A stretch of DNA of 64,000 nucleotides from an uncultured bacterium (GTDB lineage Bacteria > Babelota > Babeliae > Babelales > Vermiphilaceae), in assembly GCA_963698045.1 (NCBI GenBank), contig OY969115.1, forward strand, positions 843,467 to 907,466. Direction: 5' to 3'. Position 1 is the stretch's first letter, and each line of letters opens with the position of its first letter. Shown here one piece after another: positions 1-53,366 of this stretch. The notes beneath the pieces were generated by a model, which made no database searches, had not been told where the DNA came from, and saw only the letters and a list, made by a program, of their open reading frames with translations. Position numbers and translations under genes: made by a program.

Positions 1-368
1 TCAAAAAAAATCAGCCCCGTAACGCTCTTAGCGATCTCAACGCAATTCGAACTCAAATAAAGAACACTATTTGTGAAATAAATGAGACTAATCAAAAACA
101 AATTTTACTCCAAGTTGTTGGACTAATTAATGGACTAATAAAAAAATTGTCTGACGAAGAAGGTAGCGCTCCTGAAGCCCTTAGAGAAAAATTACGTGCA
201 GACGCTACTAGAAATAACCTAAAGGGAGCCTTACAAAATTGGAAGAAAATTGAAGTTGATGTGAACGCTTGTACAGAAAAAATAGTAACCGATTTAATAA
301 ATTTACTTCCTAGCGTGGATAATATTATCAATGCAGTACAATCAGACACATCACAACAAAAAAGATAA
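1..368 (+). CDS. 3' end of a hypothetical protein running in from the left window edge (helical, K/E/L-rich)
   Basis: The frame starting at nt 3 has no stop until TAA at 366-368. The ORF track shows only the TTG-initiated part (147..368). A hairpin terminator follows. Confidence 0.5.
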   Translation, partial: KKNQPRNALSDLNAIRTQIKNTICEINETNQKQILLQVVGLINGLIKKLSDEEGSAPEALREKLRADATRNNLKGALQNWKKIEVDVNACTEKIVTDLINLLPSVDNIINAVQSDTSQQKR

Positions 369-512
369 TAGAGTACTTAAAGCTGCTTGTACTCAGAAGA
401 TAAATCGATCTAAGATCTATAACCTAACCAATGGAAAGCAACATTCTTTCTCTTGGCTTAATGACTTCTTTATTTTGCACTTCCACAAATAGGTTGCGTC
501 CATATTTGAAAT

Positions 513-547
513 AAAAAAGGCCCAAGTTTTCTTGAGCCTTTTTTTAC
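513..547. terminator. Hairpin between convergent genes, flanked by an A-run and a T-run (bidirectional terminator candidate)
   Basis: aaaaaaGGCCCAAGttttCTTGAGCCttttttt, an 8-bp stem with one mismatch, lying between the stops at 368 (+) and 548 (-). Confidence 0.5.
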
Positions 548-1912
548 TTAAAGAACTCTATTAAAAGCAAAATAATAATTCCCATAAACAGGCCCAGCTG
601 AAGTTACTGGCAATGGTGCAGGGGAAAGGACGTTTATATTATAATTATTTGTAAACTTTGCTAAATTGTATGCAACATTCCCAAATATTGCTGAAGTTGC
701 TGATAATCCCTCATCATTAACGGCATATCCATTTCCTCCGCCATTAGCTTCTGCTCCCGTTTTTGCGATAATGCAATTACTCACTTCGGTGGTCATAGCT
801 CCCGCGACAATAGTAACACCATCTCCTCCATTCGCTGAGCCACCAGCAGTAGTCGTTAGACCAGCATCTGCACCAGAAATGGTTGAAAACTGAATCTTGC
901 AGTTTTGGCTAGTGCTATCAACGTATACACCACTACCTCCAACGCCACCGGTACCATTGTTACTTTCTCCACCATTACCTGCAGCTATTATGTTGTTTTT
1001 TATTTGTGCAGCAGTATTACTCCCAGATTCAGAAGATAATGTAATCCCATTGCCACCATTTCCTCCACCAAGAGTACCTGAAGGACTACTATCAAGACCC
1101 CCCATTCCGCCAATAATGCTATTGTTTAAAATTAAGGTATTAATGGTATCTGATACAAATATTCCATCACCACCAAAATTATAAAGTGAACCTCCTCCAT
1201 TACCATTACCCGCAGTAATTATGTTATTTTCTATAAGGATATTTCCCAGAACATTTAAATTTATACCGGTACCTCCCCTGCCGCCGTTGTCAGAAATAGT
1301 GCTACCTGCACTGCCACTACCCGCAATAATTTCACAATCAATAATCTTGACACCATTCGTTGCCAAAGAAGAACCCGCAATATCTATACCATCTCTTCCC
1401 GGAATACCACTACCACTTGCCCCCGCACTGCAATCTACAACGCAATTGGTTATAGAAACATAACCATTTTGAGTATTAATCAAGATACCAGCTGCGATAT
1501 CAGTAGCAGTTGACGGTGGAGTGGTAATAAAGCCATTTTTTAAATTAACGTGGTCAACGTTAAAGCCATTCACTAACCCATTAACGGTTCTATTATTAAG
1601 ATCCAAGGTAACGTCATTTGCGGTAATGGTAATGTTACCCGTAATGTCATTTGCTAAACAATAGTTACCGGCAAGACTTAGCGTGATGTTACCTGTGGTT
1701 ATAGCTGTGACAGAACATGCAGCAGAACTACTGCCACATGTGCAATCCAGAATACTACTTACAATATCTAAAATAGTATCCGTAGTTTCACCAATACGCT
1801 GATTTATGCACCATAAATTCTGCCCCGGTATAATGGGAGCAACCAATGCCTGTGCCGTACTGGCAATAAGACAAAATAGAAAAGAAATATAGACTATTTT
1901 TGCATATTTCAT
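548..1912 (-). CDS. Secreted Gly/Asn/Thr-rich repeat protein, probably a right-handed parallel beta-helix (adhesin or pectate-lyase-like fold)
   Basis: Signal peptide MKYAKIVYISFLFCLIASTAQA. Many short repeats such as GNITL / NDITGNITITANDVTLDL / GGxGGxG. AGGAGA RBS 6 nt upstream of the ATG. Confidence 0.7.
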   Translation of the reverse strand: MKYAKIVYISFLFCLIASTAQALVAPIIPGQNLWCINQRIGETTDTILDIVSSILDCTCGSSSAACSVTAITTGNITLSLAGNYCLANDITGNITITANDVTLDLNNRTVNGLVNGFNVDHVNLKNGFITTPPSTATDIAAGILINTQNGYVSITNCVVDCSAGASGSGIPGRDGIDIAGSSLATNGVKIIDCEIIAGSGSAGSTISDNGGRGGTGINLNVLGNILIENNIITAGNGNGGGSLYNFGGDGIFVSDTINTLILNNSIIGGMGGLDSSPSGTLGGGNGGNGITLSSESGSNTAAQIKNNIIAAGNGGESNNGTGGVGGSGVYVDSTSQNCKIQFSTISGADAGLTTTAGGSANGGDGVTIVAGAMTTEVSNCIIAKTGAEANGGGNGYAVNDEGLSATSAIFGNVAYNLAKFTNNYNINVLSPAPLPVTSAGPVYGNYYFAFNRVL

Positions 1913-2182
1913 GCTTCATCTCCTTTGTTTTCTTAATCACTAACAACTTCTCATATAATCAATAAGATAATTAATAGGGTTTAAATTGTACAAGAGTTAC
2001 TTGCAAGTAATCTTCAAATAAAGGAATTGCAAATCATACAACAGAAGTATTAAATTTTGTTTTATAGGGGCAATTAAAGCAGGTAGTGCTTTTAAAAATC
2101 TATTTTCTCTTCACCAATCGCTTACGCAACTGATATACTAAAGGCATAAGAATTAAAATCATAATCTGATTGTGACGCTAAT

Positions 2183-46369: not shown

Positions 46370-47914
46370 ATGCATAGTAAAATATATTCCGCAACAACCA
46401 TTGGTGTTGATGCCCATTTAGTCCAAGTAGAAGTAGACGTTTCTTTTGGGATGATTAACTTTCATATTGTTGGCCTCCCAGACACCGGTATTAAAGAAAG
46501 CACCAAGCGAATACAGGCGGCATTAAAGAACTGTGGATTCACGCTCCCCGCAAAACGTATTACCGTAAACTTAGCTCCTGCAGATTTAAAAAAGATTGGT
46601 ACCGTCTTTGATCTTCCCATTGCATTGGGTATTTTACATGCGGCGGAATATATAGAAATTCCCAAAGAGTTTTTAGAAGAGACTCTATTTATGGGTGAAC
46701 TGTCATTAGATGGCGGTATTCGCTTTATTAAAGGGGCTCTGGCAATTGCAGTAGATGCACAAAAACTGGGCAAAAAACGTATTATACTTCCGGCTGCTAA
46801 TGCCGCAGAAGCAGCATTAATAGATTCTTTAGAAATTATTGGCGTTGAACATCTTACCCAACTGATTGCCTACTTGCGACGTGAACACCACATTGAACCC
46901 ACCAAAAACTCATTCGCTAATGTACCAACCACCCGTGATCTGTCATTAGATTTTGCACACGTTAAAGGCCAAGCACAGGCAAAACGAGCATTACAAATTG
47001 CAGCAGCAGGCAGACACAATATTCTCTTTATTGGGCCCCCTGGGTCTGGCAAAACCATGCTGGCAAAACGTATTGCATCTATTATGCCCGCCATGACCTT
47101 TAATGAAGTTTTGGAAAGTTCCAAAATATATTCCGTAAGTGGCAAGCTTAATGCACAACATCCACTAGTACTGCAACGACCATTCCGCAATCCCCACCAT
47201 TCTATTTCCCAAGCAGGTTTAATTGGCGGCGGATCTTATCCCCAACCGGGAGAGATTAGTTTGTCCCACCACGGCATTCTCTTTTTGGATGAGTTAACAG
47301 AATTTAAACGGGACACCTTGGAAGGACTGCGCCAACCACTAGAAAATAAAACCGTAGCTATTGCACGCGTGTTACAATCTATTAGCTTTCCAGCAAATTT
47401 ACTGCTAGTTGCTGCACTTAATCCCTGCCCTTGTGGATTTTTGGGAGACAAGAAAAAATCATGCACCTGCACCCAACAACAAATTGCTAAATATTTAGCC
47501 AAGCTTTCTGGCCCCTTATTGGACCGTATAGACCTGCAGATTAGTATTCAGTCAGTTGATTATGATACTATTAAGTCACTCAATAGTGATGCAATAAGTT
47601 CGGGAGTACTCTATGAAGGTGTACAGAAAGCATTAGATGCCCAAAAAGAACGGTTTGGCACAGATGCAGTATTTAACAATGCAATGCAACCACATGAAAT
47701 TGACCAACACTGCATACTAACGCCAGAAGCAGAAGCGTTACTTAAAAAAGCATTTGAACGGCTAAACTTGAGCATGCGCGGGTACCACAAAACATTAAAA
47801 GTTGCCCGTACCATTGCAGACTTAAGCAACAGCACAGACATAGATGTGCCCCATATTCAAGAAGCAATTTTATACCGTTCGTTAGATAATTACCGGGAGC
47901 AATTACGCCTATGA
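46370..47914 (+). CDS. comM: YifB/ComM family Mg-chelatase-like AAA+ ATPase
   Basis: N-terminal Lon-like domain. Walker A GPPGSGKTMLAKR. ILFLDELTEF Walker B. CPCG zinc motif. 514 aa. Confidence 0.88.
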   Translation: MHSKIYSATTIGVDAHLVQVEVDVSFGMINFHIVGLPDTGIKESTKRIQAALKNCGFTLPAKRITVNLAPADLKKIGTVFDLPIALGILHAAEYIEIPKEFLEETLFMGELSLDGGIRFIKGALAIAVDAQKLGKKRIILPAANAAEAALIDSLEIIGVEHLTQLIAYLRREHHIEPTKNSFANVPTTRDLSLDFAHVKGQAQAKRALQIAAAGRHNILFIGPPGSGKTMLAKRIASIMPAMTFNEVLESSKIYSVSGKLNAQHPLVLQRPFRNPHHSISQAGLIGGGSYPQPGEISLSHHGILFLDELTEFKRDTLEGLRQPLENKTVAIARVLQSISFPANLLLVAALNPCPCGFLGDKKKSCTCTQQQIAKYLAKLSGPLLDRIDLQISIQSVDYDTIKSLNSDAISSGVLYEGVQKALDAQKERFGTDAVFNNAMQPHEIDQHCILTPEAEALLKKAFERLNLSMRGYHKTLKVARTIADLSNSTDIDVPHIQEAILYRSLDNYREQLRL

Positions 47915-48312
47915 TACTAGGAATTGGAATAGATACTGTAGAAGTGGTTCGTTTTGGTGATTGGCACAGCCGTTTTGACCTGCAACGTCTTTTTTCTGAA
48001 TCAGAAATTGCCTATTGCCGCAGCAATCTGGATCTAAGCGCTCAACGTTTTGCCGCACGTTACGCCGCACGGGAAGCCCTGTTTAAGGCCCTCACTAGCG
48101 CCTATGCTACCCATACCATTCCCTTCTTGACCCTGTGCACTGCAGTGAGCGTTGACAAAGCAATTAGTGGAGCGCCTTCACTGCATATAGACTGGAACCT
48201 ATTAAGCTCTTATTTACCAGAAAAAATAAGCAATAACATGATCCGCAGCCACCTGTCACTAAGCCACACCCCTTCACTGGCAACTACTATTGTGATCTTA
48301 GAGCGGGCATAA
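47911..48312 (+). CDS. acpS: Holo-[acyl-carrier-protein] synthase
   Basis: N-terminal MILGIGIDTVEVVRF motif, FAAREALFKA motif, ~130 aa. 4-nt ATGA overlap with comM. Confidence 0.8.
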   Translation: MILGIGIDTVEVVRFGDWHSRFDLQRLFSESEIAYCRSNLDLSAQRFAARYAAREALFKALTSAYATHTIPFLTLCTAVSVDKAISGAPSLHIDWNLLSSYLPEKISNNMIRSHLSLSHTPSLATTIVILERA

Positions 48313-49010: not shown

Positions 49011-49265
49011 ATGCACTACATATATATTATTCAATCAATTAAATATCCAGACAAAATTTATATCGGGCAAACAGGATATTTAAAAAAACGTTTCGCTGAA
49101 CACAACCGAGGGACAACAACGCATACTAAAAAATATGGACCTTGGAAGTTGATTGTTTATTTAGGATTTAATGATACCTACGTGGCTATAGCATTTGAGA
49201 AGTATTTAAAGTCTGGAACAGGTCGCGCAATGATTGCAAAAAGATTTCTCAAAAAAATAGAATAA
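49011..49265 (+). CDS. GIY-YIG nuclease superfamily protein (stand-alone, 84 aa)
   Basis: YIYIIQS...KIYIGQTGYLKKRFAEHN matches the GIY-(x10)-YIG core with the conserved Arg and Glu. Confidence 0.8.
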   Translation: MHYIYIIQSIKYPDKIYIGQTGYLKKRFAEHNRGTTTHTKKYGPWKLIVYLGFNDTYVAIAFEKYLKSGTGRAMIAKRFLKKIE

Positions 49266-49386: not shown

Positions 49387-50733
49387 TTAGTTTTTTCTTT
49401 GATCGTTAAAAACTAATTTCTGAAAATCTTCCCAATTATTAGTTATATACGGACAATTAACAAATTCATCTGCCTTAACCGAAGTGATGTAGTTGTTCTT
49501 TAAATCGACCTTTAACATTGGACAATTTTTAAATACTGCTGTGCCAAGCCACCTAATCTGATTGTAAGACAAATCAACCAGCATCAACTCCTGATAATTA
49601 CTAAATAATCCTGAGCCAAGTGAACTAAGCTGGTTATAAACCAACCAAACCCATTTCAATTCAGTACAGTTACTAAATACATCTACTGGCAGTGAACTAA
49701 TTTGGTTATGTGATAAATCAACATCTTGCAACTGAGGACAATTGCTAAATGCCCCTGCCGCAATTGAACTAATCTGGTTAAACGACAACCTAACCTCTAT
49801 CAACTCGGGACAATTACTAAATACTCCTGATGCAAGTGAACTAATATTGTTATCATACAAATCAATTACCAGCTTATTATCTTTTATCTGGTCACCAGCA
49901 TGCTCTTTTAACACATCCATGCATCCTGTAATATCTGACAAATTTAATTTTGTTAAATCTATTCCCAAGGAGCCATTTAAATTTTTCTTTATTCTTGATT
50001 TTAAAACATCACGATTATGCTTAGCCCAGTCTTTCAATAAAATATTGATTTTAACTGGACTACCCTTACTGTCATTTGGTATTACAAAGTTTTTATTTAG
50101 AATTTTAAGCCAAGAAACTACTGCAGATATAATCGTAGGATTAATCCCTTCTGTTTTAGCAAACTCTGCTACATCAAAATCTACATCTTTAACCAATAAA
50201 ACAAAGCGTTCTGCCAACGGTGATATCTCTTTGGGATCTGCACTCCACATGAGCGTCTTTTCCATAAGATCCAAAATAATTTGGGGATCTTGCAAAGACA
50301 ATATCAATGCATTTTGCTCTTCTTTAATCTGTTCAATAGGGAACTGTAATTTATTAAGTAGATCGTTCTTATTTTTTACCAACATATAAGGAACAAAAAA
50401 AGCAAGATCGGCAGAATTTAAGTCTTGCAACGTCACATGGCCTTCTTCTTGCTTGGCTGTCATACTCTGCACCGTCTTCCAGTGCTCGGGAACCATATCA
50501 AGTGCAAATCTAAACGTCTTGCCATCATTAGTTTTAAAGCGAATACAATCTGGACAGCTATTATTTAATGGCTTATTTGCCTTGCTATCTGCCATGCAGG
50601 TGGGGCAATAAATACCCTTCTGTTGGTTAGATACAGAAAATTGCTGTAATTGGTTAACAACACCTTGCTCCATGGGGAAAGCATGATTAGACAGTAAAAA
50701 TAAGGCCAAAGTAACCCATTGTAACTTATTCAT
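49387..50733 (-). CDS. Signal-peptide leucine-rich repeat protein with a Cys4 knuckle (LRR-1, 448 aa)
   Basis: Signal peptide. CPTC-x12-CPDC. Conserved middle module. C-terminal 24-residue LRRs (L..N.IS.L..G.FSNC..L). Confidence 0.8.
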   Translation of the reverse strand: MNKLQWVTLALFLLSNHAFPMEQGVVNQLQQFSVSNQQKGIYCPTCMADSKANKPLNNSCPDCIRFKTNDGKTFRFALDMVPEHWKTVQSMTAKQEEGHVTLQDLNSADLAFFVPYMLVKNKNDLLNKLQFPIEQIKEEQNALILSLQDPQIILDLMEKTLMWSADPKEISPLAERFVLLVKDVDFDVAEFAKTEGINPTIISAVVSWLKILNKNFVIPNDSKGSPVKINILLKDWAKHNRDVLKSRIKKNLNGSLGIDLTKLNLSDITGCMDVLKEHAGDQIKDNKLVIDLYDNNISSLASGVFSNCPELIEVRLSFNQISSIAAGAFSNCPQLQDVDLSHNQISSLPVDVFSNCTELKWVWLVYNQLSSLGSGLFSNYQELMLVDLSYNQIRWLGTAVFKNCPMLKVDLKNNYITSVKADEFVNCPYITNNWEDFQKLVFNDQRKN

Positions 50734-50760
50734 AAAACCTCCGTTTAATTAAGATTCAAA

Positions 50761-51906
50761 TTACAGTGCTTGTGCAGGATTAAAGTTAACTTGTTGTAAG
50801 CATTTAAAAGAGAGCGTATTAGCTGGGTCATAATTAAATGTTTTGCCTTGCCGTAACTCTTCACGAACCAACATTAATAAACGCCCTAAATGATTATCCC
50901 CTTGCCCATTTGCTCCAGCACCCCAAGAAGCATCATTAGCTCCCGCATTTTCTACTAAAATCTTATTGCCCGTTCCTAACAATAACTGTTGTAATTGAAG
51001 ATTTTGGAATTTAGCACGCAATGCCGTTAACATAACCTGGTATTTTTGCGTAGTATGCCAGTTTGCAGGTAATACGGCTTTTTTTGCATAATCAAATGCT
51101 TGGCGCGGTGTTTGCAACTTTCTGACTGTTTCTTGATCTTGCACATTAGAAAATTTCTGCGCTTGGAAATAATGTTCTGTTGTTGGCCAAGTTTTGCCAC
51201 CAATATTCACTTGTGCTTGGTAAAAGTTAGTGAATTCATAATATGGTTGCCCAGCATTGTAGAACAATACTGCACCGTTAATGTTCAACCAATTAGATGC
51301 TGGTTGGTTGGTAATTATTGTTGTAGTAGCTTGCTGATTCTGCTGAGACTGTTGTCCGGAATGCAATTTTTGCTGCACTTGTGGCCATGCCTCACGGAAT
51401 CTTCTTAAAAACCCACGATCAACATTGGTTCCTTTTTCACAAACGTCCCCCTGTCCCAAGAATGTCTGTACGGGGCGCCAGATATAATCCACATTTCCAC
51501 TGGTATTGCCAACTTGTTTTACTGCAAAGGTATAAATATCTGGTCCAGAGACATATTTAACCGGAACTATAAATAACGTATCTTGTGATATGTTATCAAA
51601 ATAACTTACTGCATTCTGCCAAAAAACATTGTTTTTAGATGATTGATACACTGCATTATCTGCTTTACCCGTATTAACTTTAAGCGCTAACTTTGCAGTA
51701 TCAATAGCCGCTATACCCTGCTTCTTTTGCAATGATAATGCATTCCAATAACTACCACGACTTAGCAACATATTCCATTGATTGGTTTGGTTATTAAAAG
51801 CAACAGGAATTACGCGAACGTACTCAGTTGGCGCCATTGCAGTAAGCAATGATGTGCTCGCTAACGCAGCTGCACATAATAGTTGTTTGAAAAAAGATTG
51901 TTTCAT
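50761..51906 (-). CDS. Secreted protein with a C-terminal NADAR (YbiA/DUF1768) domain
   Basis: Signal peptide MKQSFFKQLLCAAALASTSLLTA. C-terminal half FYNAGQPYYEFTNFY..TTEHYFQAQKF..ALRAKF..LLLGTGNKILVE..DASWGAG..G.N.LGRLLMLVREEL matches the NADAR consensus. Confidence 0.8.
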   Translation of the reverse strand: MKQSFFKQLLCAAALASTSLLTAMAPTEYVRVIPVAFNNQTNQWNMLLSRGSYWNALSLQKKQGIAAIDTAKLALKVNTGKADNAVYQSSKNNVFWQNAVSYFDNISQDTLFIVPVKYVSGPDIYTFAVKQVGNTSGNVDYIWRPVQTFLGQGDVCEKGTNVDRGFLRRFREAWPQVQQKLHSGQQSQQNQQATTTIITNQPASNWLNINGAVLFYNAGQPYYEFTNFYQAQVNIGGKTWPTTEHYFQAQKFSNVQDQETVRKLQTPRQAFDYAKKAVLPANWHTTQKYQVMLTALRAKFQNLQLQQLLLGTGNKILVENAGANDASWGAGANGQGDNHLGRLLMLVREELRQGKTFNYDPANTLSFKCLQQVNFNPAQAL

Positions 51907-51977
51907 AAAAAAACCTCCCTATTTTAAATTAATACTCTATTTATTTTAATCATACACATAAAACAATCTTAATTTAC

Positions 51978-53345
51978 TTAATATTGTTTGTTTTGACTGT
52001 ATAAAACAACTGCTTTGAATGCTTCCCAATTATTGGTAATTAGCGGACAATTACTAAATACTTCCGGTTGTAATGCACTTATCTTATTGTCACCTAAATG
52101 TACTTCTTTCAACTGGGGACAATTACTAAATATTCCCGGTTGTAATTCATTTATCTGATTGTAAGATAACCAAACTACATTCAACTGGGGACAATTACCA
52201 AATACTCCCGGTTGTAACACCCTTATCTGATTATTATATAACCAAACTGTATTCAACTTAGGACAATTACTAAATATTCCCGGTTGTAATCCACTTATCT
52301 GATTATTAATTAAACTAATTTCTTTCAGCTTGGGACAATTACTAAATATTCCCGGTTGTAATGCCCTTATCTGATTGCAAGATAAATCAACTATTCGCAA
52401 CTGAGGACAATTACTAAATACCCCTGGTTGTAAAATACTTATCTGATTTCCACCTAAATTAACTTGTCGCAACTGCGGATAATTACAAAATACTCCCGGT
52501 TGTAATGCACTTATATAATTGTTAGATAAATCAATACTGATGATTTTCGATCCATGTTTTTCTAAGAAATCTGCTAATCCTTCAATATCAGATAAGCCAA
52601 TATCAGAAAGATTAAGAATAGAGCCCTGTATTATTTTTTTTGTTGCATCATTGTACTTTGACCAATCTTTGAATGAAATATTAGTTTTAACCGGTGTCTT
52701 TCCATCTGAACTCACTGGTATTTTTAAATCTTTATTGAAGATCGTTAACCATGATACAACTGCTGATACAATTTCTGGCGATATATCTGGATTTTTTGCA
52801 AATTCTATTAGATCAAAACTTTGGTCTTCTTTTATCAACAAGGCAAGCGGTTCTGCAATAGCAGATAGGGCTTTTCTTTCTAATCCCCATAACAATCCTT
52901 TTTCCATAAGGTTTATTAATTCTTGTGCATCTTGTAGAGACAATAAGTTTGCATCCAATTCTTCTTGTATTTCCTCAGTGCTTAATCCAAGCTTTGCACA
53001 GATATTATCTTTATTTTGTGCTAATACTGATCCCGTAAATAACGCAAGATCTTTTGAACTAAAGTCTGGTAGTGGAACATAGTTATTTTCTTGCTTTGCA
53101 AGCATATTTTTTGATTGTTGCCACTGCACAGGAACCAGATCCTTTGCGATCCTAAATTTCTTGCGGTCATTAGTGATAAACCTTAGGCAATTAAGGCAAC
53201 TATCCTGCCGAACGGTGCTACAGGTTGAGCAATAAATAGTTTCTGCCTGATCTTCTTGCTTTAATGCAGTAACAATGTTTGATTCCATTGCGTGCACCGC
53301 AATGTTGGCAATCGCTAAAACAATAAAAAATAGTATCTTTTTCAT
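51978..53345 (-). CDS. Signal-peptide LRR protein with a Cys4 knuckle (LRR-2)
   Basis: Start at MKKILFF (GGAG RBS). CSTC-x6-CLNC. Nine or more 24-residue LRRs (LQPGVFSNCPQL). Confidence 0.8.
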   Translation of the reverse strand: MKKILFFIVLAIANIAVHAMESNIVTALKQEDQAETIYCSTCSTVRQDSCLNCLRFITNDRKKFRIAKDLVPVQWQQSKNMLAKQENNYVPLPDFSSKDLALFTGSVLAQNKDNICAKLGLSTEEIQEELDANLLSLQDAQELINLMEKGLLWGLERKALSAIAEPLALLIKEDQSFDLIEFAKNPDISPEIVSAVVSWLTIFNKDLKIPVSSDGKTPVKTNISFKDWSKYNDATKKIIQGSILNLSDIGLSDIEGLADFLEKHGSKIISIDLSNNYISALQPGVFCNYPQLRQVNLGGNQISILQPGVFSNCPQLRIVDLSCNQIRALQPGIFSNCPKLKEISLINNQISGLQPGIFSNCPKLNTVWLYNNQIRVLQPGVFGNCPQLNVVWLSYNQINELQPGIFSNCPQLKEVHLGDNKISALQPEVFSNCPLITNNWEAFKAVVLYSQNKQY

Positions 53346-53366
53346 ACATAACTCCATTATTGATTA

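Follow-up and report, generated by a model that had tools for sequence, protein, structure and literature searches.

Amongst the closest described systems is YbiA of Escherichia coli (PDB 2B3W; COG3236/TIGR02464), an N-glycosidase acting on riboflavin intermediates and a single-domain, cytoplasmic NADAR protein of about 160 aa from a riboflavin-making host. YbiA-type NADARs hydrolyse guanosine-ADP-ribose and cytidine-ADP-ribose on DNA and RNA in vitro (PMC11125620, PMC12945103). A catalytic Glu/Lys pair is conserved in NADAR proteins, for example as E43 and K50 in Phytophthora nicotianae NADAR and as E88 and K95 in E. coli C7 NADAR (PMC11543638). The YbiA subfamily carries Glu at the site equivalent to P. 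nicotianae E125, a site occupied by Asp in the BC4488/DarG1 subfamily and by His in phage NADARs. In giant viruses and RNA viruses, NADAR and Macro domains have been proposed to counter host ADP-ribose-based defence (PMC9503650). Nudix folds provide a second point of reference. The inactive Nudix sensors NrtR, AraR, CFIm25/CPSF5 and mL46 carry a degenerate Nudix box and are found inside cells, in DNA-binding fusions or in RNA-processing and ribosomal complexes. Secreted Nudix effectors of eukaryote parasites and pathogens, such as Melampsora AvrM14, Phytophthora Avr3b and Ralstonia RipN, are active hydrolases.

The protein described here combines elements of both groups. It is encoded within a 64,000-nt stretch of DNA (the window) from the 1.73-Mb, single-contig genome of a bacterium of the order Babeliales (phylum Dependentiae) that lives as a parasite inside protist cells. 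The 381-aa gene corresponds to the ORF at 50761-51906 on the minus strand and was called real, with a strong ribosome-binding site. Its product carries, in one reading frame, a predicted signal peptide, a Nudix-like domain with a decayed Nudix box, a flexible linker and a YbiA-type NADAR domain (Table 1). We consider it somewhat better than even (probability roughly 0.55) that this protein is a two-domain, Babeliales-specific, exported ribosyl or ADP-ribosyl N-glycosidase that is aimed by its dead Nudix module. The combined features suggest that an enzyme of a normally cytoplasmic, ADP-ribose-removing family is active beyond the bacterial cell, with host molecules as its probable targets.

Table 1. 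Features of the NADAR gene, its product and its surroundings (window coordinates).
Feature	Position	Strand	Basis or remark
Shine-Dalgarno AGGGAGG	51914..51920	-	Precedes the ATG at 51906 by 7 nt; read straight from the sequence
Predicted signal peptide, residues 1-23 (MKQSFFKQLLCAAALASTSLLTA)	51838..51906	-	Heuristic n-/h-/c-region scan; AF2 helix
Pseudo-Nudix domain, residues 26-185	51352..51831	-	AF2, Foldseek, HMM matches
Decayed Nudix box, residues 54-80 (WNALSLQKKQGIAAIDTAKLALKVNTG)	51667..51747	-	Alignment with intact-box relatives and canonical Nudix
Flexible Q/T-rich linker, residues 186-204	51295..51351	-	AF2 pLDDT <50 at 189-201
YbiA-type NADAR catalytic domain, residues 205-356	50839..51294	-	Pfam, TIGR02464, profile, Foldseek
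E244	51175-51177	-	Key NADAR residue, codon checked
K251	51154-51156	-	Key NADAR residue, codon checked
W283, W328		-	Further key NADAR residues
E319	50950-50952	-	Key NADAR residue, codon checked
D325	50932-50934	-	Key NADAR residue, codon checked
C-terminal tail, residues 357-381, plus stop codon	50761..50838	-	pLDDT low
Flanking signal-peptide LRR gene	49387..50733	-	Pfam LRR_8 E 1e-39; lineage-specific insert, outside the conserved unit
Three signal-peptide LRR genes (51978-53357, 53367-54458, 54458-55660) and a 633-aa ORFan	51978..57576	-	Inserted between the canonical Nudix and NADAR genes
Upstream syntenic anchor: MurJ (58087-59649) and canonical cytoplasmic Nudix (57663-58094)	57663..59649	-	Pfam
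Downstream syntenic anchor: ComM/Mg-chelatase-like (46370-47914) and ACPS (47911-48312)	46370..48312	+	Pfam

The initial annotation had matched the C-terminal part of the protein to the NADAR/YbiA consensus, and profile searches bore this out. Pfam NADAR (PF08719) matched residues 215-352 with an E-value of 4.8e-30 and 105.4 bits against a cut-off of 35.1, spanning profile positions 2-163 of 163, and TIGR02464 scored 102.8 bits against a cut-off of 73.7. Foldseek aligned the model to 2b3w with a TMt of 0.78 and 43% identity. Inspection of the catalytic residues, which had been proposed as a check, found all of those examined to be intact: E244, K251, W283, E319 and D325 do not vary amongst the family members, position 328 is W, F or Y, and E244/K251/W283/E319/D325/W328 align with E43/K50/W89/E125/D130/W133 of P. 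nicotianae NADAR. E244 and K251, both invariant in 21/21 family members, lie within TEHYFQAQK, and E319, likewise invariant, lies within LVENAGAND. The Glu at position 319 and the match of the family profile to E. coli YbiA (2b3w, E 1e-51), compared with E 5e-18 for the P. nicotianae structure 8bau, placed the domain in the YbiA subfamily. Outside the catalytic domain, the linker is of variable length and low complexity across the family, and the tail is confined to the closest orthologues, with the motif TxxYDPxxTLSxxxLxxxNF common to the members P0001 and P0002. Membership of a known anti-phage defence family was rejected, as scores fell far under the cut-offs (48.9 bits against an equivalog cut-off of 240 for the anti-phage NADAR DS32_2, NF053876, and only 36 bits for PADLOC PDC-M42C).

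The roughly 190-aa N-terminal domain, previously listed as unknown, could be given an identity once its structure was predicted, as the annotation had recommended. The core of the domain was modelled by AF2 with a pLDDT of about 90, and the Foldseek matches in the PDB that followed YbiA were all Nudix folds (Dcp2, NrtR, CFIm25, AraR and AvrM14; E about 1e-4, probability 1.00), with NrtR matched both with and without ADP-ribose. TMt values of 0.5-0.6 to isolated Nudix domains agreed with the Nudix alpha/beta/alpha sandwich, and the relative placement of the pseudo-Nudix and NADAR domains was uncertain in the model (pTM 0.51). The domain has no Pfam (NUDIX) match of its own in the window protein, and single-sequence phmmer returned 11 matches only, indicating that it is too divergent for such searches and that profiles are needed. 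Its HMM matched a canonical Nudix protein of the same genome (E 8e-5) and signal-peptide-bearing Nudix proteins of relatives (E 1e-9 to 1e-13), of which the two with the strongest Pfam matches exceed the Pfam NUDIX cut-off. A weak sequence match to mitoribosomal mL46 was also seen.

The Nudix box itself (GX5EX7REUXEEXGU) has decayed. The canonical REUxEE reads LALKVN, in a register with which hhalign was concordant; the window protein has AKLALKVNTG where the family consensus is xALxxQTN, and all three Glu are replaced. The loss of these metal-binding glutamates means that a Nudix-fold domain of this kind could not hydrolyse pyrophosphate bonds. The N-terminal domain is thus, as judged from alignment and model, a degenerate and catalytically dead Nudix module, and its profile matches trace it to the signal-peptide-bearing Nudix proteins of the same order, in which the box is intact. 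The idea that the module arose as a copy of the canonical Nudix gene nearby was discarded, since an hhalign E-value of just 0.09 gives it no specific support. No ligand-binding residues could be identified in the pseudo-Nudix domain.

Full-length relatives number at least 20, with 31-43% identity across 85-97% of the protein, and the full architecture of signal peptide, pseudo-Nudix domain, flexible linker and NADAR domain is conserved. Of 201 genomes sampled from the phylum, about 17 encode both domains in one frame, and the architecture was seen nowhere else sampled. Outside the phylum scan, sequence searches found the N-domain only together with NADAR (7/7 full-length matches). None of the 81 viral NADAR ORFs and none of the bacterial NADAR ORFs from loci outside Dependentiae carried it, and ordinary NADARs outside Dependentiae are about 150 aa long. 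In a FastTree phylogeny, the signal-peptide-bearing Babeliales NADARs and the fusion family formed one clade (support 0.82; 35 tips, namely 34 Dependentiae and 1 other bacterium), and L117 (162 aa), the only NADAR to lack a signal peptide, grouped with ordinary bacterial YbiA. A transfer of the complete fusion between these bacteria and giant viruses was rejected, as the viral contigs have the NADAR domain only and no specific viral sister appeared in the tree.

The start of the reading frame bears directly on where the protein acts. The N-terminus of the window protein (MKQSFFKQ-LLCAAALASTSLL-TA/MAP, the slash marking the presumed cut) has n-, h- and c-regions in an uncalibrated heuristic scan, with two Lys and a 13-residue uncharged hydrophobic core followed by LTA/M, so that LTA/MA is a probable SPase I cleavage site. 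The AF2 model has a helix at residues 2-22 and its first strand from residue 29. One alternative is an ordinary YbiA-like housekeeping enzyme that keeps an uncleaved membrane anchor, or starts at M24, and has its task within the bacterial cell, such as dealing with damaged ribosylamine metabolites or helping to repair nucleic acids of the bacterium itself. It could draw on the cytoplasmic location of E. coli YbiA and on the in-frame Met immediately after the hydrophobic segment, seen in this protein and in 8/21 relatives, at which one gene caller placed the start of the member P0010; genome-wide, a Met follows signal-peptide-like h-regions in 28% of cases against 12% expected, and dual starts are possible. 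The Shine-Dalgarno sequence before M1, with nothing comparable before the ATG of M24, speaks against it and against the earlier concern that the true start might lie downstream of the hydrophobic segment. By the same uncalibrated heuristic, 19/21 full-length family members have a comparable N-terminus, many without a following Met, and the sole Babeliales NADAR lacking a signal peptide is L117, a separate protein of the ordinary YbiA type. An intracellular housekeeping role is therefore improbable, and more so given the metabolic background discussed below.

The signal peptide noted in the initial annotation was thus recovered across the family and on most other NADAR proteins of the order (L118, L119, L120, L122, L123 and others), as far as the heuristic goes. 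The weight that had been placed on finding it before a cytoplasmic-type domain did not hold up to the same degree, as such N-termini are commonplace in the lineage: about 40-46% of the ORFs of the source genome look signal-peptide-bearing in the heuristic scan, and 44% of CDS were reported to be so in Chromulinavorax destructans (PMC6561590). The signal peptide alone is therefore not special and says little about a specific effector role. Components F and G of a type II secretion system (T2SS) are encoded inside the window, and two secretins are present in the genome.

The window protein has no lipobox (the pattern [LVI][ASTVI][GAS]C closing the h-region). Possible lipoboxes occur in the family members P0005, P0007, P0011, P0014 and P0018, and also in L119, which suggests that some copies remain in the envelope and do not reach the host. 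These observations can also be accommodated by a salvage enzyme of the periplasm or surface, which would cleave N-glycosidic bonds of host ribosyl, NAD or ADP-ribose-type metabolites for import of the pieces by a metabolically dependent parasite, the pseudo-Nudix domain holding the dinucleotide. A parallel logic is known from NAD auxotrophs, in which periplasmic enzymes such as NadN of Haemophilus process NAD. A signal peptide is predicted and a host-targeting signal is not obvious, and the intact-box, signal-peptide-bearing Nudix sister group of the same order could represent extracytoplasmic pyrophosphatases. Additionally, Dependentiae have incomplete biosynthetic pathways and import nucleosides and ATP (PMC6561590). 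However, an N-glycosidase would destroy, not free, the useful nucleoside moiety of NAD or NMN, and the family is present in a minority of the sampled genomes of the phylum (the count above, also given as about 20%), unlike core nutrition. Identity across the family is 55% in the NADAR domain versus 25% in the N-domain, and such fast evolution is more like that of a conflict or recognition module. A further argument came from genome G025 of the same GTDB family, where one protein joins a signal peptide, two copies of the pseudo-Nudix domain and a RING finger (zf-C3HC4_3, 37.4 bits; cut-off 27). To our knowledge, a RING finger is of use only in the eukaryotic cytosol, and this fusion points to host-directed use of the module. 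Taken together, these points make a salvage function unlikely, although less so than a housekeeping one.

Neither of the known NADAR roles fits this genome, given that RibA and RibD are absent and DarT went undetected. A riboflavin damage-control role was rejected: neither RibA (PF00925) nor RibD_C (PF01872) was found in the 1.73-Mb genome, in searches that did detect these families in 10 and 14, respectively, of the 14 control genomes. A housekeeping YbiA would hence have no riboflavin pathway to service, and an extracytoplasmic, non-canonical role becomes plausible. As for DarT, the earlier remark that no DarT-like partner is visible nearby was upheld, with no DarT or ART gene found amongst the neighbours (LRR, ORFan, Nudix, MurJ, GIY-YIG, ACPS and ComM); nor was a DarT or ART gene found beside the NADAR gene in five other loci inspected. 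Genome-wide, DarT (PF14487) and ADPrib_exo_Tox (PF03496) gave no match, and this absence is suggestive only, because the controls were likewise silent, PF14487 in every control genome. A DarT-NADAR or other ART-antitoxin pair was accordingly set aside.

The same data bear on a variant of that idea, in which the protein would be the envelope-located immunity partner of an unrecognised exported ART toxin of the same bacterium, by analogy with DarT-NADAR and YarT-YbiA pairs. The silent controls leave room for such a toxin, and the characterised non-metabolic roles of NADARs are all antitoxin-like (PMC11543638, PMC11125620). The syntenic neighbours of the gene are housekeeping genes, and no ART-like gene adjoins it at any of the loci inspected. 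The gene of an immunity protein normally adjoins that of its toxin. We regard this variant as the least probable of the alternatives.

The gene order ABC-MurJ-Nudix-NADAR-ACPS-ComM is conserved. In L085, a locus from another family of the order, the upstream anchors MurJ and Nudix have the same order and orientation as in the window, and the downstream anchors ComM and ACPS the same order. The four LRR genes that flank the NADAR gene had been read as a meaningful array in which it is embedded. This gained no support from the comparison, as L085 has WD40 genes at the site where the window has LRR genes; a functional link to the LRR array was rejected as unproven, and the NADAR gene appears as a conserved resident amongst lineage-specific LRR or WD40 inserts.

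As a whole, the promoter and terminator scan was not informative, with 29 promoter-like sites where 39.7 were expected. The motif TTGATTTTCTATTTG was absent upstream of the NADAR gene and of its block, and its count in the window was not above chance. The entire block of minus-strand genes nevertheless lies between a strong promoter-like site (57632-57605) and a terminator-like hairpin (49361-49337).

From these features we infer export, a final location beyond the cytoplasm, a nucleotide-type ligand and a ribosyl-type substrate, which can be joined into one mechanism. The predicted Sec signal peptide would take the protein out of the cytoplasm, and the T2SS components and secretins may allow further transport. 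In the mature protein, the disordered linker would tether the dead Nudix fold to a fully equipped NADAR domain, predicted to act as a ribosyl N-glycosidase or as a hydrolase taking ADP-ribose off nucleic-acid bases. By comparison with NrtR, CFIm25 and AraR, the dead Nudix module may recognise a nucleotide-type ligand or target and would aim the NADAR domain at ribosyl or ADP-ribosyl N-glycosidic substrates beyond the bacterial cytoplasm. The likeliest targets would be host-derived ADP-ribose adducts or signals within the infected protist.

A bolder version, which we put forward tentatively and find doubtful though a little more credible than salvage, is that of a secreted effector in the protist host, in which the dead Nudix module recognises a nucleotide-bearing target and the NADAR domain erases ADP-ribose marks or signals used in defence. 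Candidate targets would be capped, NAD-capped or ADP-ribosylated RNA or DNA, and such an effector would be a bacterial counterpart of viral macrodomains. The pseudo-Nudix domain would then be a reusable targeting module, coupled in relatives also to a RING ubiquitin ligase.

Altogether, the results suggest that obligate intracellular parasites of protists systematically export a whole clade of NADARs. This would be the first indication of NADAR chemistry deployed outside the producing cell, and the protein offers a concrete, expressible candidate for testing it. The secreted pseudo-Nudix domain would be a new lineage-specific module, and from its ligand one could learn what the parasites sense or target in the host. 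If the function were periplasmic salvage instead, it would add a new step to the processing of host nucleotides by energy parasites.

Compared with the described systems, the window protein is closest to YbiA in its C-terminal domain, where the hallmark Glu (E319) and the E/K pair (E244, K251) are kept. What sets it apart is a predicted signal peptide, a pseudo-Nudix domain of 160 aa and a genome without RibA or RibD. With DarG1 (DarT1-associated) and P. nicotianae NADAR (PDB 8BAU) it has in common the fold, the catalytic E/K and the residues that contact ADP-ribose, and on this sequence likeness it likely shares their chemistry, the hydrolysis of N-glycosidic ADP-ribosyl-base bonds. The 8BAU match is much weaker than that to YbiA, and the protein differs from this group in its predicted export (versus a cytoplasmic location), in the lack of a found ART partner and in having Glu instead of the BC4488/DarG1 Asp. 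NADARs of giant viruses of amoebae (Tupanvirus, Hokovirus and marseillevirus) are 40-44% identical, are the top viral structural matches and likewise come from parasites of protists; they differ in lacking the pseudo-Nudix module, any requirement for a signal peptide and a specific sister relation in the tree. The inactive Nudix sensors share the degenerate Nudix box and, in NrtR, AraR and CFIm25, provide some of the best structural matches of the N-domain, whereas the module of the window protein is placed after a predicted signal peptide and before a hydrolase. Secreted Nudix effectors such as AvrM14, whose AvrM14-B form was amongst the Foldseek matches, offer the parallel of a signal-peptide-bearing Nudix fold from a parasite of eukaryotes, but in those proteins the Nudix fold is the active hydrolase, whereas the window protein, whose signal peptide is a predicted one, has a dead Nudix box and a fused NADAR domain as its catalytic part.

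A signal peptide, a pseudo-Nudix domain, a linker and a NADAR domain make up, with a probability that we place near 0.9, the protein encoded by the NADAR gene of the window. The NADAR domain was matched by Pfam at residues 215-352 (E 4.8e-30, 105 bits against a cut-off of 35.1) and by NCBIfam TIGR02464, the YbiA-type N-glycosidase domain (102.8 bits against 73.7), both above cut-off, and the initial annotation was right about the ORF, the domain and the LRR flanks. For a profile of the fusion family, the pseudo-Nudix-NADAR proteins of Babeliales, the match to E. coli YbiA (2b3w) had an E of 1e-51, compared with 5e-18 for the P. nicotianae NADAR (8bau), and the AF2 model of the window protein (mean pLDDT 84; NADAR blocks 94-98) was superposed on 2b3w by Foldseek with a TMt of 0.78 and 43% identity. 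In the P. nicotianae enzyme, E43, K50, W89, E125, D130 and W133 touch ADP-ribose or serve catalysis, and the YbiA subfamily is recognised by a Glu in the place of E125 (PMC11543638). The equivalents in the window protein, in the same order, are E244, K251, W283, E319, D325 and W328; the family varies at none of the first five and always has an aromatic residue at the W328 position. Loss of catalytic residues, raised in the initial annotation as an argument against its own proposal, is thus not the case, and from its sequence the domain looks catalytically competent. In vitro, YbiA-type NADARs take ADP-ribose off guanosine and cytidine of DNA and RNA (PMC11125620; PMC12945103).

The N-terminal domain (N-domain), previously called unknown, was identified as a dead Nudix fold by Foldseek, HMM comparison and alignment of the Nudix box. 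Residues 29-190 were modelled with a core pLDDT of ~90 (AF2), and all significant Foldseek matches in the PDB after YbiA were Nudix folds (E ~1e-4, probability 1.00), amongst them Dcp2, NrtR (with and without ADP-ribose), AraR, CFIm25, AvrM14, DIPP1 and MutT1. Additionally, the family profile weakly matched the mitoribosomal protein mL46, which we take to be of Nudix fold. Pfam finds no match in the N-domain of the window protein; the N-domain HMM matched a canonical Nudix protein of the same genome (E 8e-5) and signal-peptide-bearing proteins of other Babeliales (E 1e-9 to 1e-13), which keep an intact Nudix box (W.DFGG...GE...TA.REF.EET) and of which the two strongest Pfam-matching ones pass the Pfam NUDIX cut-off. 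The aligned region reads xALxxQTN in the NADAR-fused clade and LALKVNTG in the window protein, where all three metal-binding glutamates are missing. Because fold and homology are those of Nudix proteins, yet these glutamates are gone, the N-domain is a Nudix homologue unable to act as a Nudix hydrolase. It also changes much faster than the NADAR domain (25% versus 55% identity of the window protein to its relatives).

Table. Features of the NADAR gene neighbourhood and of related loci
Feature	Position	Strand	Description
ABC-ATPase	59690-60406
MurJ	58087-59649
Canonical Nudix	57663-58094	-	143 aa, no signal peptide, Ap4A-hydrolase-like; overlaps MurJ gene end
Promoter-like site	57632-57605	-	best sigma-70-like match of the region, 11/12 positions; upstream of 633-aa gene
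633-aa ORFan and three LRR genes			between canonical Nudix and NADAR gene
NADAR gene	50761-51906	-	381 aa
C-terminal tail motif	50764-50838	-	T.NYDP..TLSF..L...NF.....L
LRR gene			with GIY-YIG gene between NADAR gene and ACPS
Terminator-like hairpin	49361-49337	-	11-bp stem, after last LRR gene
GIY-YIG	49011-49265	+	lone 84-aa domain ORF between ACPS and LRR/NADAR block; weak PADLOC PDC-S14 matches
ACPS	47911-48312
ComM-like	46370-47914
L105 (genome G025, window's GTDB family)	557-1834	-	425 aa: signal peptide, two tandem pseudo-Nudix, C-terminal RING
L112 (genome G162)	984-2078	-	reciprocal layout: signal peptide, intact-box Nudix, truncated/degenerate NADAR-like C-terminus
L109 (genome G061)	88-1590	+	pseudo-Nudix-NADAR with C-terminal CxxC...CxxC motif

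Export of the window protein is likely. The motif AGGGAGG lies 7 nt ahead of the ATG at 51906, and no such motif was found at M24, the next in-frame Met, immediately past the hydrophobic segment; a cytoplasmic role through a start at M24 is therefore less likely. The export signal proposed in the initial annotation is made more probable by this motif and by a signal-peptide-like N-terminus in 19 of 21 aligned family members; the signal peptide alone carries little weight, since a crude, uncalibrated scan places such N-termini on 40-46% of the ORFs of 100 aa or longer in the window's genome, and one on a "cytoplasmic" domain is not remarkable by itself. Other Babeliales NADARs with N-terminal regions that differ or are absent also carry signal peptides (L118, L119 with a lipobox, L120, L122 and L123). 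In a FastTree of 171 NADAR domains, which is short, single-domain and indicative only, the signal-peptide-bearing Babeliales proteins formed one clade (support 0.82; 35 tips, 34 from Dependentiae and one from another bacterium) with the fusion family nested in it (0.84), and L117, a 162-aa Babeliales NADAR with no signal peptide, clustered with ordinary bacterial YbiA. These groupings suggest that export characterises this Babeliales NADAR clade. T2SS F and G genes within the window and two secretins in the genome provide, in principle, a route past the periplasm.

Across the whole genome, a Met lies within 8 residues past the hydrophobic core in 28% of 576 signal-peptide-like candidates versus 12% expected (e.g., ...VHA/ME, ...VQA/ME, ...LTA/MA), window genes 49387-57576 included. 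The excess may come from a preference at the cleavage site, or else from alternative starts within the gene that give cytoplasmic isoforms.

Four signal-peptide LRR genes flank the NADAR gene, so that its description as embedded in an LRR array holds by position; a functional link does not follow, as WD40 genes occupy the conserved site in OY970332, a 1.2-Mb relative genome of another GTDB family. There the order ABC-MurJ-Nudix-NADAR-WD40-ACPS-WD40-ComM matches that of the window, and the canonical Nudix gene directly precedes the NADAR gene, both being on one strand. The NADAR gene is an old resident of the site, and the repeat-protein genes are lineage-specific arrivals. Comparison by hhalign (E 0.09) gave no specific support for kinship of the window's canonical Nudix with the pseudo-Nudix domain. 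The GIY-YIG ORF, which borders the variable region, may be what is left of a mobile endonuclease. The promoter-like site and the hairpin bracket a six-gene minus-strand block including the NADAR gene, which may thus be a single transcription unit.

The window's genome, a single contig of 1.73 Mb, belongs to Babeliales in the phylum Dependentiae (TM6). Cultivated members of the phylum are obligate intracellular protist parasites with no complete metabolic pathways, and signal peptides are predicted for 44% of the CDS of Chromulinavorax destructans, most ankyrin-repeat proteins among them (PMC6561590). The known NADAR roles do not fit the window protein. Neither GTP cyclohydrolase II nor the RibD reductase domain was found in the genome, although positive controls worked, so the riboflavin-intermediate substrates of YbiA are not made and that role is ruled against. 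An immunity role against an unseen ART is less likely than the reading we favour; as the initial annotation had observed for DarT, no ART/DarT gene adjoins the NADAR gene, here or at the relatives' loci inspected, and genome-wide DarT and ADPrib_exo_Tox searches gave no match, yet their controls were equally silent.

A protein search gave more than 20 full-length relatives, 31-43% identical to the query across 85-97% of its length, all sharing a hydrophobic N-terminus, a ~160-aa domain, a low-complexity linker of variable length and NADAR. Some match was present in 43 of 201 sampled genomes of the phylum and both domains in one frame in about 17, the latter belonging to several GTDB families. 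Outside this phylum scan, the N-domain was seen by sequence in NADAR proteins only (7/7 full-length phmmer matches); it was found in none of 81 viral NADAR ORFs and in no bacterial NADAR locus from outside Dependentiae; the median length of NADAR proteins there is 152-157 aa. L015 (CAYTRW010000003.1), labelled "uncultured Pseudomonadota", carries the N-domain and was counted as Dependentiae; the label is probably wrong, and the record and L127 (G022:C3, window's GTDB family) seem to be one 92,252-bp contig, with two tandem pseudo-Nudix-NADAR genes of 444 and 393 aa. Parts of the window protein recur at 95-98% identity in two short database proteins, P0122 and P0123, which appear to be pieces of this gene, broken by frameshifts, in a different assembly of this organism or of one very close to it. 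Apart from the window protein, only P0001 and P0002, the two relatives closest to it, keep the tail motif; P0001 has no pseudo-Nudix but a signal peptide and a second hydrophobic segment ahead of NADAR. The fusion gene at G198:C3:18314-19403 appears pseudogenised: its N-domain part contains three TGA and two TAA stops, and the NADAR frame, which is intact, stands apart from it.

Within the order, the pseudo-Nudix module also occurs alone, often in tandem with a fusion gene (L099, L100), and duplicated. The RING finger of L105 (zf-C3HC4_3, 37.4 bits against a Pfam cut-off of 27) is a domain that, to our knowledge, is meaningful in the eukaryotic cytosol only, and thus forms a separate line of evidence for the host as the target of proteins containing this module; the L105 protein is a candidate host-directed E3 ligase. 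The CxxC...CxxC motif of L109 weakly matched the RanBP2-type zinc finger, another eukaryote-type domain (17 bits, below cut-off). The NADAR-like part of L112 scored 32 bits, below cut-off, and does not keep the catalytic Lys position. Signal-peptide-bearing Nudix proteins with intact boxes were located at L101, L102, L103, L104, L108 and L111 (genomes G130, G003, G001, G198, G119 and G115, respectively), L104 having a second, degenerate Nudix copy. Judged by sequence, they are candidates for Nudix hydrolases that Dependentiae export in active form, and the pseudo-Nudix module appears to descend from them.

Altogether, the best-supported reading is an exported two-domain enzyme, in which the dead Nudix module would serve as a recognition domain flexibly linked to an active YbiA-type NADAR hydrolase acting on ribosyl/ADP-ribosyl N-glycosidic bonds outside the bacterial cytoplasm. 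Its substrates would most likely be host-derived molecules; host ADP-ribose adducts in particular are a tentative and rather doubtful assignment. In the main rival reading, the protein would salvage nucleotide-type metabolites of the host in the periplasm or at the cell surface. The sister group of signal-peptide-bearing active Nudix proteins and the possible lipoboxes of a few family members (none in the window protein) speak for it, whereas the patchy distribution of the family, the fast-evolving N-domain and the RING fusion argue against it. In the searchable literature, neither a signal-peptide NADAR nor a pseudo-Nudix-NADAR fusion was found described, nor were secreted Nudix/pseudo-Nudix modules in Dependentiae. 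The family of the catalytic domain is known, and the domain is an ordinary representative of it; the novelty lies in the architecture, in the location that it implies and in the lineage-specific module.
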